Assembly (NCBI RefSeq): GCF_013122565.1
Contig: NZ_CP053258.1
DNA from: Escherichia coli
GTDB lineage: Bacteria; Pseudomonadota; Gammaproteobacteria; Enterobacterales; Enterobacteriaceae
Strand: one strand, 5' to 3'
DNA: 64,000 nt
The notes under the pieces were generated by a model. It did not search any database and was not told the origin of the DNA. It was given only the letters and a program-made list of their open reading frames with translations. Below, piece after piece: positions 825-51,159 of this stretch (positions are counted from its first letter, which is position 1; each line of letters begins with the position of its first letter). The position numbers and the translations under genes are program-made.

Positions 825-1105
825 GGGTTAATTCCCTTTGGTAAGATTTTTTCGACATCGGTATGTGGTCGGGGAATAACGTGTACGGCTTTTACTTCGC
901 CGACGTTACGCGCAGCTGCGGCACCTGCGTCTGTTGCCGCTTTTACCGCCCCGACATCACCACGAACGATGACGGTCACCAGCCCGGAACCTATTTTTTC
1001 GTAGCCGACCAGCAAAACATTTGCTGACTTCACCATGGCGTCTGCGGCCTCTATGGCGGCAGTTAAGCCTTTGGTTTCTACCATTCCTAACGCTTCTTGT
1101 TGCAT
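821..1105 (-). CDS. pduA: Propanediol-utilisation microcompartment shell protein PduA (BMC domain)
   Basis: 94-aa [33 protein letters not shown], the canonical BMC-domain shell protein; first gene of a minus-strand operon divergent from pduF. Confidence 0.9.
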
Positions 1106-1617
1106 AAAGACCTCGTCTGGATTTTTTTGACGATATGACTATAAAAAAAAGCGAGGAAAAAGAATGGCTGACTTAATCGGCTAATGAGAAAAATTAATAG
1201 AGGGCAAATATTATAAAATTGCTTTTATGAACTATATGTTGTTAATTTATTAGTTGTTTTGTGGATATTTCAATGTGAATTAATTGCGTTGGCTGAGGAG
1301 GTTAATCGCGGATAAAATTTCGTTGGGTTTGGTTCGCGGAAGGGAATTGTGATATTTGTTTAAATTTTATTATATCATGATGACAATTTTTTATTGTAAA
1401 AGCTTGGCGGTAATTATTACTTTCAACACTGATTAACGCTGTGTTGCATGATTCTGCAATGACAATAATTTGTTATCTTAGCACGATTTTTACACGAGTC
1501 TGTCATGCATGTTGGCAATATTTTCTGCAGAGCAATTTTTTATAGTTGCGCTCGGTATACACAACAATCAGCGCATAGTTGGCTGATAAAGAAAAACTCC
1601 GTAAAGAAGGTGTCACT
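1106..1617. promoter_or_regulatory. Divergent pdu / pduF-pocR control region
   Basis: 512-bp AT-rich non-coding spacer between divergent pduA and pduF starts; in Salmonella this region holds PocR-dependent promoters (established knowledge); no motif confirmed here. Confidence 0.5.
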
Positions 1618-2427
1618 ATGAATGATTCACTCAAGGCGCAATGCGTTGCCGAGTTTTTGGGCACTGGACTGTTCCTCTTTTTTGGCATTGGTTGTTTGTG
1701 CGCCCTGAAAGTTGCCGGGGCAAGTCTGGGACTGTGGGAAATTTGTATCATTTGGGGGTTAGGGATTTCGCTTGCTGTTTACCTTACGGCAGGTATTTCC
1801 GGCGCTCATCTTAACCCGGCTGTTACCATTGCTCTGTGGCTGTTTGCCTCTTTCCCAGCCCGTAAAGTGCTGCCATTTTGTGTGGCGCAATTAGCGGGTG
1901 CCTTTGGTGGTGCGGTTCTGGCATATTCTCTATACAGCAATTTGTTTATCGATTTTGAATCTGCTCACAATATGGTGCGTGGTAGTGCAGAAAGTTTACA
2001 ACTCGCCAGTATCTTCAGTACTTATCCGGCAGCGGCGATTAATGTATGGCAAGCTGCGTTGGTCGAAGTGGTCATAACGTCCATGTTAATGGGGTTGATT
2101 ATGGCGTTGACCGATGACGGTAATGGCGTACCCAAAGGACCGCTTGCGCCTTTACTTATTGGTATTCTGGTTGCTGTTATTGGTGCTTCTACCGGACCAT
2201 TAACCGGTTTTGCCATGAATCCAGCGCGTGATTTTGGACCTAAGATTTTCACCTGGCTTGCGGGGTGGGGGGAAATTGCGATGACTGGTGGACGCAATAT
2301 TCCTTATTTCATTGTACCCATTATTGCACCGATCATTGGGGCATGTGTTGGTGCGGCGATTTATCGCTATCTCATTGCAAAGAATTTACCTGTCAATAGT
2401 GTAACGCCTAAAGAAATTAGCGAATAA
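1618..2427 (+). CDS. pduF: Propanediol diffusion facilitator (aquaglyceroporin/MIP family)
   Basis: ORF with ATG at 1618 preceded by aaagaagg RBS; MIP-family hallmarks (two NPA motifs: HLNPAVT and NPARD); the ORF track starts at a TTG at 1579. Confidence 0.85.
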   Translation: MNDSLKAQCVAEFLGTGLFLFFGIGCLCALKVAGASLGLWEICIIWGLGISLAVYLTAGISGAHLNPAVTIALWLFASFPARKVLPFCVAQLAGAFGGAVLAYSLYSNLFIDFESAHNMVRGSAESLQLASIFSTYPAAAINVWQAALVEVVITSMLMGLIMALTDDGNGVPKGPLAPLLIGILVAVIGASTGPLTGFAMNPARDFGPKIFTWLAGWGEIAMTGGRNIPYFIVPIIAPIIGACVGAAIYRYLIAKNLPVNSVTPKEISE

Positions 2428-2629
2428 CGAAATACTCTGGCAGTTATAAACGTTTATTTTTTTACTGTTTGTGATCTGCTTTCCGAACTTATTAAAAAGT
2501 CTCCCGCTTCACGGAGGCTTTTGTTATTGTCCTTTGTGCTTCTCGTCAGTAAATCATCAGGGATGATGTGAAGATTAAATGTAAAACAATTGTTTTGCTA
2601 TAACAATAAATTAACTGGGAGGTTTTATC

Positions 2630-3544
2630 ATGATTTCTGCGGCGACACTTAATTCAGAACTCATTAATAAAATCGCGCAGGATTTTGCGCAGGCGACCAG
2701 CCTTGCGGTTGTCGTGGTCAATATTCACGGCGATGAAATTTCCGAGCTGTTTAACTTCACTCCATTTTGTCAGATGATGCGGCAACACCCTCAGCTAAGC
2801 ACTCGATGTCGCATGAGTGATCGTTGTGGGGGCCTGGAAGCCTCTAAGTCCGATCAGCCTTGTATTTATCGCTGTCATGCCGGATTAACCGATTTCTCTA
2901 TTCCTCTGGTAATCGCCGGACATTTAGTTGGTTTTGTATTGTGCGGGCAAGTTCGTCTGCGTAATGATGATGTCGATTTGGTTGATATTCTGAATGTCGA
3001 TGATTGCTGGCAGGCAGATCCCGAATTACTTAATGAATTCCGCAAAGTCCCTGAGATGGATTACTCAAGAGTTATGGCCTCTGCTGATTTGTTGAAGTTG
3101 ATTGTGGAAAATTGCCTCAAAAAACAACTCAATTTTGTGGTTATTAAAGAAAACAAATCTCAGTCAGATTCGGTGCGCCAGACTCGTGCGCCTAATCCCC
3201 ACGACAATAAAATGAAAAAAGCTTTACGCTATATTGATGCACATTTATCAGACGATTTGCGTCTGGAGGATGTCGCCTCACATGTTTACCTAAGCCCTTA
3301 TTATTTCAGTAAGTTATTTAAGAAATACCATGGAATCGGGTTTAATGCGTGGGTAAACCAACAACGGATGGCCAGCGCTCGTGAGTTACTGTGCCATAGC
3401 GACTGGAGCATCGCCAGCATTGCGCGTAATTTAGGTTTTTCCCAAACCAGTTATTTTTGCAAAGTTTTCCGTCAGACTTATCAGGTTACGCCGCAGGTGT
3501 ATCGGCAGCAAGTGAATGAAAATGCGGCGATGGAAATGGTATAG
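2630..3544 (+). CDS. pocR: AraC-family transcriptional activator of pdu/cob regulon
   Basis: 304-aa ORF with C-terminal AraC-type HTH; position between pduF and the cob leader matches the Salmonella pocR arrangement. Confidence 0.85.
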   Translation: MISAATLNSELINKIAQDFAQATSLAVVVVNIHGDEISELFNFTPFCQMMRQHPQLSTRCRMSDRCGGLEASKSDQPCIYRCHAGLTDFSIPLVIAGHLVGFVLCGQVRLRNDDVDLVDILNVDDCWQADPELLNEFRKVPEMDYSRVMASADLLKLIVENCLKKQLNFVVIKENKSQSDSVRQTRAPNPHDNKMKKALRYIDAHLSDDLRLEDVASHVYLSPYYFSKLFKKYHGIGFNAWVNQQRMASARELLCHSDWSIASIARNLGFSQTSYFCKVFRQTYQVTPQVYRQQVNENAAMEMV

Positions 3545-3649
3545 AGTAAATGCCCCAAAAAAAGAGGACGGTTTAAATAAACTCTGGAATGAATAATTAA
3601 CGTTATTTACCTGTTATGGGAAAAGTAAAATCAGCTCATAACATACGCT

Positions 3650-3860
3650 GACAGGTGTGGCACATTTGTGCCTGGGAAGAGGGTGAAAATCCCTCGCAGC
3701 CCCCGCTGCTGTAATGCTGACAAACCCGAAAATGCCACTGATCGCGAGATTGGGAAGGTCGGGAGAGGATGACGCTAAGCCAGAAGACCAGTCTGTCAGT
3801 CAATACCAACAACTTCGGTGGGAAGTGGGTTGCCCGGAAGCGTTCGGTAGAGTACAGGCG
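3650..3860 (+). promoter_or_regulatory. Cobalamin (B12) riboswitch, cob-operon leader type
   Basis: Conserved elements read directly: cctgggaaga, ggtgaaaatccc, gcagcccccgctgctgtaa, aatgccactg, and a B12-box-like aagccagaagaccagtc at about 3776-3795; boundaries approximate. Confidence 0.7.
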
Positions 3861-47579: not shown

Positions 47580-47618
47580 AAACTGCTAAGGTTGCGACTC
47601 TTTGGCAACGGAGCGCGT

Positions 47619-48314
47619 ATGGACTTACAACACTGGCAGGCAGAGTTCGAAAACTGGTTGAAAAACCATCATCAGCACCAGGACGCGGCCCATGACGTGT
47701 GTCATTTTCGCCGCGTCTGGGCTACGGCACAGAAGCTGGCGGCAGATGATGATGTCGATATGCTGGTGATTTTAACCGCCTGTTATTTTCACGATATTGT
47801 GAGCCTGGCGAAAAATCATCCGCAGCGGCAGCGTTCTTCAATCCTGGCGGCAGAAGAGACGCGTCGCCTGCTCCGTGAAGAGTTCGTGCAATTTCCGGCG
47901 GAGAAAATTGAGGCCGTTTGTCATGCCATTGCCGCTCACAGTTTCAGCGCGCAAATCGCCCCCTTAACCACGGAAGCTAAAATTGTCCAGGATGCGGATC
48001 GGCTGGAAGCCCTGGGGGCGATTGGCCTGGTGCGCGTGTTTGCCGTTTCAGGGGCATTGGGCGTGGCGCTGTTTGATGGCGAAGATCCGTTCGCACAGTA
48101 TCGCCCGCTTGATGATAAACGCTACGCGCTGGATCATTTCCAGACTAAGTTGCTGAAGCTACCGCAAACCATGCAAACCGTAAGAGGCAAGCAGCTGGCG
48201 CAGCACAACGCGCAATTTTTAGTCGAGTTTATGGCGAAGCTCAGTGCCGAACTGGCGGGGGAGAATGAAGGTGTCGATCACAAGGTGATAGATGCGTTTT
48301 CACCCGCGGGCTGA
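47619..48314 (+). CDS. yedJ: HD-domain phosphohydrolase
   Basis: Start trimmed to [13 protein letters not shown] (231 aa); HD motif CYFHDIV. Confidence 0.85.
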
Positions 48315-48380
48315 GCGCGTGGCCCTAAATGGCTGTAATTATGTTAACCTGTCGACCATCTCAGATGGCCGGTTAAATCT

Positions 48381-49799
48381 ATGCAGGAAAATATATCAGT
48401 AACCGATTCATACAGCACCGGGAATGCCGCACAGGCAATGCTGGAGAAACTGCTGCAAATTTATGATGTTAAAACGCTGGTGGCGCAGCTTAATGGTGTG
48501 GGTGAGAATCACTGGAGCGCGGCAATTTTAAAACGTGCACTGGCGAATGACTCGGCATGGCACCGTTTAAGTGAGAAAGAGTTCGCCCATCTGCAAACGT
48601 TATTACCCAAACCACCGGCACATCATCCGCATTATGCGTTTCGCTTTATCGATCTATTCGCCGGAATTGGCGGCATCCGTCGCGGTTTTGAATCGATTGG
48701 CGGACAGTGCGTGTTTACCAGCGAATGGAACAAACATGCGGTACGCACTTATAAAGCCAACCATTATTGCGACCCGGCGACGCATCATTTTAATGAAGAT
48801 ATCCGCGACATCACCCTCAGCCATAAAGAAGGCGTGAGTGATGAGGCGGCGGTGGAACATATTCGTCAACACATTCCTGAACACGATGTTTTACTGGCCG
48901 GTTTCCCTTGTCAGCCATTTTCGCTGGCTGGCGTATCGAAAAAGAACTCGCTCGGGCGGGCGCACGGTTTTGCCTGCGATACTCAGGGCACGTTGTTCTT
49001 TGATGTGGTGCGCATTATCGACGCGCGTCGTCCGGCGATGTTTGTGCTCGAAAACGTCAAAAACCTGAAAAGCCACGACCAGGGTAAAACGTTCCGCATC
49101 ATCATGCAGACGCTGGACGAACTGGGCTATGACGTGGCTGATGCAGAAGATAACGGGCCGGACGATCCGAAAATCATCGACGGCAAACATTTCCTGCCGC
49201 AGCACCGTGAACGCATCGTGCTGGTGGGTTTTCGTCGCGATCTGAATCTGAAAGCCGATTTTACTCTGCGTGATATCAACGGATGTTTCCCTGCGCAGCG
49301 AGTGACGCTGGCGCAGCTGTTGGACCCGATGGTCGAGGCGAAATATATCCTGACGCCGGTACTGTGGAAGTACCTCTATCGATATGCGAAAAAACATCAG
49401 GCGCGCGGTAACGGCTTCGGTTATGGAATGGTTTATCCGAACAATCCGCAAAGCGTCACCCGTACGCTGTCTGCGCGTTATTACAAAGATGGCGCGGAAA
49501 TTTTAATCGATCGCGGATGGGATATGGCCACGGGTGAAAAAGACTTTGACGATCCGCTGAATCAGCAACATCGTCCACGTCGGTTAACGCCTCGAGAATG
49601 CGCGCGCTTAATGGGTTTTGAAGCGCCGGGAGAAGCGAAATTCCGCATTCCGGTTTCGGACACTCAGGCCTATCGCCAGTTCGGTAACTCGGTGGTCGTG
49701 CCGGTCTTTGCCGCGGTGGCAAAACTGCTTGAGCCAAAAATCAAACAGGCGGTGGCGTTGCGTCAGCAAGAGGCACAACATGGTCGACGTTCACGATAA
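48381..49799 (+). CDS. dcm: DNA-cytosine C5 methyltransferase (CCWGG)
   Basis: 472 aa; C5-MTase motifs FAGIGG (motif I) and GFPCQPFS (motif IV). Confidence 0.95.
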
Positions 49800-50250
49800 G
49801 GCCACCCGCAGCAAAAATATGCGCGCGATTGCCACGCGTGATACGGCGATTGAGAAGCGCCTCGCCAGTATGTTAACCGGGCAGGGCCTGGCGTTTCGCG
49901 TTCAGGACGCCAGTCTGCCCGGACGCCCGGATTTTGTCGTTGATGAATATCGCTGCGTGATATTTACCCACGGCTGCTTCTGGCACCATCATCACTGCTA
50001 TCTGTTTAAAGTGCCTGCGACTCGAACCGAGTTCTGGCTGGAGAAGATAGGTAAAAATGTTGAGCGAGATCGCCGCGATATCAGTCGCTTGCAGGAACTC
50101 GGCTGGCGCGTATTGATTGTCTGGGAGTGTGCATTACGTGGGCGCGAGAAGCTGACGGATGAAGCGCTTAGCGAGCGTCTGGAAGAGTGGATCTGCGGCG
50201 AAGGTGCCAGCGCGCAGATCGACACGCAGGGGATTCATTTACTCGCTTGA
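49780..50250 (+). CDS. vsr: Very-short-patch repair endonuclease
   Basis: 156 aa from the ATG at 49780 ([17 protein letters not shown]); overlaps the dcm 3' end by 20 nt in another frame. Confidence 0.9.
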
Positions 50251-51159
50251 TGCGTCCTGAATAACTGGCGCAACTACGGGTTTTGCCGGGAAGAGATATT
50301 TTCCCAACGTGACCAGTACCACCGCGAAGACAATTACGCCGAGCGCCAGCCATTCAATCTTCGACAGCGTTTCTCCGCCCAGTCCCGTACCCAGCAAGAC
50401 CGCGACCACCGGGTTAACGTAGGCGTAGCTGGTGGCGAGAGCCGGACTGACGTTGCGGATTAAATACATATAAGCGTTGATGGCGATAATCGAACCAAAC
50501 AGCGCCAGATAGCCGACCGCAAGGAAGCCTGAAAGGGAAGGGAGCGCCGTCAGTTTTTCACCCGCAATCATCGACGCGATCATTAACACCATGCCTGCCG
50601 CCAGCATCTCAATCGCACCCGCCATCATCCCTACAGGTAAGGTAATGCGCGAGCCATAAACCGAGCCAAACGCCCAGCTAATCGAGCCGATTAAAATCAG
50701 AATCGCGCCCCACGGATTGCCGCTTAAATTTCCACCGCTATTGAGCATGATGATTCCGGCAAGCCCAATGGCGATACCCACCCATTCCAGTTTGCGCGTT
50801 TTAATGCCAAACAGGCGGCTGAAGCACAGGGTAAAGAGGGGCACGGTTGCAACCACAACGGCGGCGATGCCGGAAGGAACATTTTGATGTTCGGCAACCG
50901 TCACCATGCCATTACCGACAGCCAGCAATAACAGGCCAATCAGCGCGGCATTGAGCAGCGGACGTAGCGGGGGGAGCTTGTGTCCGCGTAGTAGCAAAAA
51001 TGCCAGCAATAAAATACCGGCTGCCAGGAATCGAACGCCCGCCATCATTAACGGAGGCCAGCTTTCCACGCCAATCCGAATGACAAAATAGGTTGAGCCC
51101 CAAATGATATACAACGCAAACAGCGCGCCAAAAAGCGGTAACAACTGGCGGAAACGCAT
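50239..51159 (-). CDS. yedA: EamA/DMT-family transporter
   Basis: 306 aa, ten predicted TM helices, two EamA-like halves. Confidence 0.85.
   Translation of the reverse strand: MRFRQLLPLFGALFALYIIWGSTYFVIRIGVESWPPLMMAGVRFLAAGILLLAFLLLRGHKLPPLRPLLNAALIGLLLLAVGNGMVTVAEHQNVPSGIAAVVVATVPLFTLCFSRLFGIKTRKLEWVGIAIGLAGIIMLNSGGNLSGNPWGAILILIGSISWAFGSVYGSRITLPVGMMAGAIEMLAAGMVLMIASMIAGEKLTALPSLSGFLAVGYLALFGSIIAINAYMYLIRNVSPALATSYAYVNPVVAVLLGTGLGGETLSKIEWLALGVIVFAVVLVTLGKYLFPAKPVVAPVIQDASSE

Follow-up and report, generated by a model that had tools for sequence, protein, structure and literature searches.

The dcm-vsr junction

The window, a stretch of 64,000 nt from Escherichia coli (contig NZ_CP053258.1 of assembly GCF_013122565.1), carries dcm at 48381..49799 and vsr at 49780..50250, both on the plus strand. 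The dcm frame encodes 472 aa (ATG to TAA) and was assigned from the ORF list, the family profiles, and its identity to K-12. vsr, placed by the ORF list and a script, encodes 156 aa (ATG to TGA) and corresponds to the very-short-patch repair endonuclease. The two genes share 20 nt at 49780..49799 on the plus strand (ATGGTCGACGTTCACGATAA), made up of 17 nt of dcm sense codons plus the dcm stop and reaching over vsr codons 1-7. The vsr frame is +1 relative to dcm, since (49780 - 48381) mod 3 = 1 in a script check. The last codons of dcm are CAT GGT CGA CGT TCA CGA TAA (tail QHGRRSR, then the stop), the first codons of vsr are ATG GTC GAC GTT CAC GAT AAG (MVDVHDK), and the dcm TAA (49797..49799, plus strand) is embedded in the vsr codons for Asp6 and Lys7 (GAT AAG). 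The initial annotation had described an exact 20-nt overlap in different frames, with the vsr ATG inside the last dcm codons. The window sequence at 49600-49960, the ORF list, and the script all gave the same coordinates for the two genes, in full agreement with this description, and the ATG at 49780 sits 17 nt before the dcm TAA. A Shine-Dalgarno (SD)-like AAGAGG is found on the plus strand at 49768..49773, inside the dcm Gln-Glu codons and 6 nt upstream of the vsr ATG.

Downstream, vsr runs into yedA, a minus-strand gene at 50239..51159 for an EamA-family transporter (Pfam EamA match). The plus-strand vsr and the minus-strand yedA converge with a 12-nt overlap of their 3' ends (50239..50250) and, therefore, there is no intergenic space for a terminator of either transcript. 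This 12-nt overlap is also present in K-12; in other genera (loci L031 and L038 of our survey), the genes abut without overlap. On the minus strand at 49822-49838, within the start of vsr, a hairpin and the T-run behind it resemble a terminator (CGCGTGGCAATCGCGCG CATATTTTTG). This is probably a chance match that arises from conserved vsr codons (...AAAAATATGCGCGCGATTGCCACGCG).

Identity of the two products

Alignment to Dcm and Vsr proteins, the check proposed with the initial annotation, bore out both reading frames, with 469 of 472 residues identical to K-12 Dcm (99%) and 153 of 156 identical to K-12 Vsr (98%). The predicted dcm product is unambiguously a DNA-cytosine C5 methyltransferase of the Dcm type. 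It scored 259.2 bits against Pfam PF00145 (DNA_methylase; cut-off 22), 72.1 bits against PF18284 (DNA_meth_N; cut-off 25), 949.1 bits against NCBIfam NF007772 (PRK10458; cut-off 710), and 348.7 bits against TIGR00675. Enzymes of this class share motif I (F-x-G-x-G, for AdoMet), motif IV (the catalytic Pro-Cys), and motif VI (ENV). The translation holds AdoMet motif I, the Pro-Cys of motif IV, and the ENV of motif VI (within VLENVKN). Given 99% identity to the characterized K-12 enzyme, Dcm would be expected to methylate the inner C of CCWGG.

The predicted vsr product is equally unambiguous as a very-short-patch repair endonuclease (T:G mismatch endonuclease). It scored 133.3 bits against Pfam PF03852 (cut-off 27) and 181.7 bits against TIGR00632 (cut-off 97.85), and it matched the E. 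coli Vsr structures 1CW0 (E = 2.5e-105), 1VSR (E = 1.1e-92), and 1ODG. Past residue 2, two substitutions separate it from 1CW0, L31M and T131S. Asp51, His64, His69, Phe67, Trp68, Trp86, Cys66, His71, Cys73, and Cys117 are all present in the translation. We take these ten to be the catalytic, intercalating, and zinc-binding residues, in the roles assigned to them by Tsutakawa and colleagues in 1999. At 98% identity to the K-12 protein, Vsr is likely to nick 5' of the T in T:G mismatches within CTWGG/CCWGG.

Comparison with K-12 and other E. coli genomes

In the RefSeq annotation of MG1655 (locus L001 of our set), vsr lies at 1949..2419, dcm at 2400..3818, and yedA at 1040..1960, giving overlaps of 20 nt and 12 nt. 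The first of these is identical in length to the overlap in the window, and the initial annotation was right to call the arrangement a known one. The K-12 dcm-vsr operon (b1961-b1960) resembles the window in its flanks, with yedJ upstream and a convergent yedA downstream, as well as in the 20-nt overlap, the +1 frame, the AAGAGG, the TAA stop, and the near identity of the proteins. This operon was reportedly described by Sohail and co-workers in 1990. Strain 14EC033 also has a 20-nt overlap, and the 1870-bp dcm-vsr segment was found in 5367 of 5426 complete E. coli genomes, where the order of annotated genes was always dcm, vsr, yedA.

The sole difference from K-12 within the overlap is base 49784 (plus strand), which is T in the window and C in K-12. 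With T, the dcm codon still specifies Gly (GGC to GGT) and Ala2 of Vsr becomes Val (Ala2Val); elsewhere, Dcm differs from its K-12 counterpart at three residues and Vsr at two. The exact 71-nt junction with T at 49784 occurs in 1524 of the 5426 complete genomes (about 28%) and, thus, represents a common allele. The best identity of the window to these RefSeq genomes was 98.2% over positions 20000-44000 and 98.8% over 48381-50250 (dcm-vsr). The lineage of the window appears not to be closely represented among complete E. coli genomes, as for a divergent E. coli or a cryptic clade.

Conservation of the overlap across Enterobacteriaceae

Eighty loci encoding Vsr relatives, taken from one genome per species, were analyzed by scripts. 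The overlapping set comprised 60 loci, namely 59 that were fetched (58 from the scan and the annotated E. coli locus L002) and the window; K-12 (L001), where the overlap is the same, was left out of this count. The junction alignment was ungapped, and 61 sequences were used in the tests for upstream stops and structural pairs. The overlap measured 20 nt in 50 loci, 26 nt in three, 17 nt in three, 14 nt in two, and 23 nt and 35 nt in one each. The genera with an overlap include Escherichia, Salmonella, Citrobacter, Enterobacter, Lelliottia, Raoultella, Superficieibacter, Siccibacter, and Trabulsiella. In a single sequence, the chance of a stop falling exactly six codons past a given point is about 0.037, so the length of the overlap by itself is unremarkable. 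What exceeds chance is the conservation of that length, which is exactly 20 nt in 50/60 enterobacterial loci.

The three alignment columns of the dcm TAA (78-80) were each conserved in 56-58 of the 60 loci. The stop arises from Vsr codons 6-7, which read GAT followed by AAG or AAA, or else AAT AAG. Since these codons belong to a conserved V-H-D/N-K motif, the dcm stop is largely fixed by Vsr coding. The codon for Asp6 was GAT in 41 of 42 cases, compared to 59% GAT in the rest of these genes (p about 1e-8, uncorrected). However, GAT was also used in 9 of 10 vsr loci without an overlapping dcm, and the bias therefore cannot be attributed to the dcm stop with confidence. We regard it as weak proof of selection for that stop.

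Loci with other dcm/vsr arrangements

The survey also contained loci in which the two genes are arranged differently. In Kosakonia, Phytobacter, and related genera, vsr comes right after the HD-domain gene yedJ and before yedA, with no dcm at the locus. This was seen in L031, L033, L037, L042, L054, L059, and L064, where vsr lies at about 3001-3465/3495; the E. coli counterpart is window 47592-50250. In these loci, a spacer of 10-18 nt separates yedJ from vsr, which has a strong SD. Here vsr is apparently an orphan, at the place that the dcm-vsr pair occupies in E. coli.

A spacer of 10-35 nt lies between the end of dcm and the vsr ATG in Cedecea, Dryocola, some Buttiauxella, and some 'Enterobacter sp.' genomes. 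Six loci have this layout (L057, L070, L071, L077, L079, and L081), with the junction near 2965-3001 and a strong GGAG-type SD in the spacer. With a spacer of 12 nt, as in L070, the stop codon of dcm shares the vsr frame. Stop loss and a change of frame could have turned such a spacer arrangement into the E. coli-type overlap, or the reverse may have happened. Five Buttiauxella loci (L038, L041, L047, L058, and L078) contain an extra segment that sets the end of dcm about 875-1024 nt apart from the downstream vsr. In L038, an ORF of 172 aa lies in this segment on the opposite strand (2185-2703); it matched no Pfam family.

Two loci had an altered dcm. In L003 (Escherichia sp. MOD1-EC7003), the ORF that overlaps vsr (2397-3020) has 207 codons and matches Dcm residues 307-472 only; dcm appears to be truncated or interrupted there, with vsr intact. 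In L029 (Klebsiella indica), only a dcm remnant at about 2940-3020 lies upstream of vsr, joined to the usual HGGRSR tail and its stop. This looks like an internal deletion of dcm that spared the overlapping junction and an intact vsr.

Ribosome-binding site, RNA structure, and transcript signals

The duplex of the window's AAGAGG with the 3' end of 16S rRNA was predicted to be of moderate strength, at -5.8 kcal/mol. The G and A of the GAG core (columns 51-52) were conserved in 56-59 of the 60 loci. Over the 60 overlapping loci, the predicted duplex also averaged -5.8 kcal/mol, with values as weak as about -3 in Citrobacter. A mean of -8.5 kcal/mol was obtained where vsr follows a dcm spacer (six loci) or yedJ, in a comparison that ignores phylogeny.

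A hairpin predicted in the window (columns 30-90 of a 121-nt segment) takes in the SD, the ATG, and the TAA, and is not significantly stable, with a z score of -1.16. Its pairs were not conserved across the 61 sequences, as they could form in 69.6% of cases compared to 69.5% in shuffled sequences, and RNAalifold predicted no structure over the vsr ribosome-binding site. On these three results, we rejected a conserved RNA structure that masks this site as the basis of coupling.

A crude consensus scan of the plus strand from the dcm start to the vsr start found no sigma-70-like site. A similarly crude same-strand scan for terminators over this interval found only one terminator-like match, early in dcm (48670-48683). 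Co-transcription of vsr with dcm has been reported (PMC12907096).

Initiation of vsr and its dependence on dcm

On the alignment evidence, ATG 49780 is the true start of Vsr. The initial annotation had named a Vsr N-terminus aligning to a different start codon as the result that would count against it; the TIGR00632 profile, the 1CW0 structure, and the variation among orthologues all fit 49780. TIGR00632 aligned Vsr residues 1-118 to profile positions 1-119, and the Pfam Vsr profile aligned residues 3-74 to positions 2-73. The full-length 1CW0 chain (155 aa) begins at residue 2 and aligned from residue 2-3 onward. Among the 60 loci, nucleotide variation from the ATG onward sits on the third-codon positions of vsr, and positions 1-2 are essentially invariant. 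Vsr residues 3-5 and 9-12 are invariant in this set, and residues 3-12 as a whole are conserved with synonymous third-position variation. Upstream of the ATG, the periodicity is that of the dcm frame, and the 7 nt right before the ATG (columns 54-60) are unconstrained. The last seven residues of Dcm occur in 33 variants. Judging from these patterns, purifying selection within the overlap is on the vsr frame only, and the Dcm C-terminal tail is a variable passenger.

The other start codons available to vsr do exist in frame, at Met14 (ATG 49819, which would abolish the overlap) and at TTG 49729, 49708, and 49618, and the 1VSR crystal is of a proteolytic Vsr fragment that lacks the first 20 residues. 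However, the family profiles begin at Met1, codons 3-13 are conserved with the third-position pattern of the vsr frame, and in 13 of 61 aligned sequences the 60 nt ahead of the ATG include a stop in the vsr frame, which directly adjoins the ATG in two of them. In addition, loss of the first 14 residues lowers the endonuclease and repair activity of Vsr (PMC2715241). Because of this impairment and the evidence for 49780, Met14 and the upstream TTGs were rejected, and the chance that Vsr starts elsewhere and that the overlap is mis-stated is practically nil. Only slightly less remote is the production of Vsr as a Dcm-Vsr fusion by +1 ribosomal frameshifting in the overlap. The vsr frame is indeed +1 to dcm and stays open for 57 codons upstream of the ATG. 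Nevertheless, all 60 loci retain an ATG or GTG start codon at the 49780 position or no more than two codons away from it, along with an SD core rich in purines, and in genera that have no dcm at the locus vsr stands alone with an unchanged N-terminus. The active recombinant and crystallized Vsr is the 156-residue form. The Vsr protein that is detected measures about 18 kDa. We judged the fusion to be very unlikely on the basis of the conserved start and SD core, the stand-alone vsr genes, and the active 156-residue form.

With initiation at 49780, it is highly probable that the window holds the chromosomal E. coli dcm-vsr pair in its standard configuration, presumably with one mRNA and with efficient vsr initiation needing dcm translation. 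Translational coupling from dcm to vsr is the accepted reading in secondary citations, and our results support it only indirectly. From published work in K-12, the two genes would be read from one mRNA, and ribosomes translating dcm would be needed for efficient vsr initiation. The layout is that of a coupled pair, as the genes are on the same strand and both the vsr ATG and its AAGAGG lie inside dcm. An alternative that we find unlikely is that the overlap has no role in coupling, and that vsr initiates from its own SD while the overlap extends to the first dcm-frame stop, provided by the Asp6-Lys7 codons. The strength and 6-nt spacing of the AAGAGG would suit independent initiation, as would the result that no conserved occluding structure was found by z score, shuffling, or RNAalifold, the high variability of the Dcm tail, and the Kosakonia and Phytobacter loci in which vsr has its own SD directly after yedJ. 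Of 10 loci in which no dcm overlaps vsr, 9 likewise retain GATAA(A/G), so the TAA is largely a by-product of Vsr coding. On the other hand, the SD is weaker on average in the overlapping arrangements, most of all in Citrobacter, and a passage in PMC4444293 (citing Dar & Bhagwat 1993) states that dcm-6, a nonsense mutation at codon 45, eliminates vsr activity as well. The dcm-6 phenotype could equally reflect transcriptional (Rho-dependent) polarity rather than translational coupling. Dar and Bhagwat are also said to have concluded in 1993 that vsr expression depends on dcm translation, which likewise speaks against independent initiation.

Coupling could act by either of two routes. A ribosome that terminates at the TAA would reinitiate 17 nt upstream at the vsr ATG, or translation of dcm would keep the vsr ribosome-binding site accessible. 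If coupling operates, we infer that termination and reinitiation is the more plausible route, since coupling based on RNA structure received no support. VSP repair has been reported to be biased toward stationary phase, possibly with higher levels of Vsr, and the output of Dcm and Vsr would thus not be strictly locked together. Our literature search found no text linking 'translationally coupled' with vsr and dcm; the early primary papers were beyond its reach.

A further reading is that the 20-nt overlap is a selected design feature across Enterobacteriaceae that fixes a low Vsr:Dcm ratio through backward reinitiation at a weak SD. We consider this possible, though doubtful. The constant position of the dcm stop in a dozen or more genera, 17 nt past the start of vsr, and the 41:1 preference for GAT could speak for it. 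Lineages that lost the overlap or dcm could then have compensated with a stronger SD (-8.5 compared to -5.8 kcal/mol). To our knowledge, no such comparative rule has been described before for the dcm-vsr operon.

Significance of the arrangement

Knowledge of the dcm-vsr overlap dates from about 1990, and the interpretation given to it here is standard. In biological terms, the gene that creates 5-methylcytosine is physically, and by this interpretation translationally, tied to a gene for T:G mismatch repair. If the two are coupled, a cell that makes the mutagenic 5-methylcytosine also makes the repair enzyme for its deamination product. What is mildly new here is the comparative survey of the 20-nt geometry, its variants, the genera that depart from it, and the vsr genes without dcm. 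The survey also adds comparative evidence for ATG 49780 as the true Vsr start.

Comparison with known systems

Linkage of a Vsr homologue to a methyltransferase gene varies among bacteria. The vsrA gene of Caulobacter is not linked to its methyltransferase, and in Neisseria a Vsr homologue is found next to a cytosine-5 methyltransferase (PMC12907096). C5-methyltransferase/Vsr pairs on plasmids of Pseudomonas, Acidiphilium, Agrobacterium, and Gemmobacter are like the window in that the Vsr homologue adjoins the methyltransferase. The Vsr proteins linked to plasmid and chromosomal restriction-modification systems differ from the window's Vsr, being only 30-48% identical, and they are often accompanied by a restriction endonuclease. 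In its layout, dcm-vsr resembles translationally coupled, overlapping operon pairs, in which the genes are on the same strand and the downstream start and its SD lie inside the upstream ORF. Most coupled operon overlaps are 1 or 4 nt (ATGA, TAATG). The dcm-vsr overlap is 20 nt and, therefore, a terminating ribosome would move back 17 nt to reach the vsr ATG.
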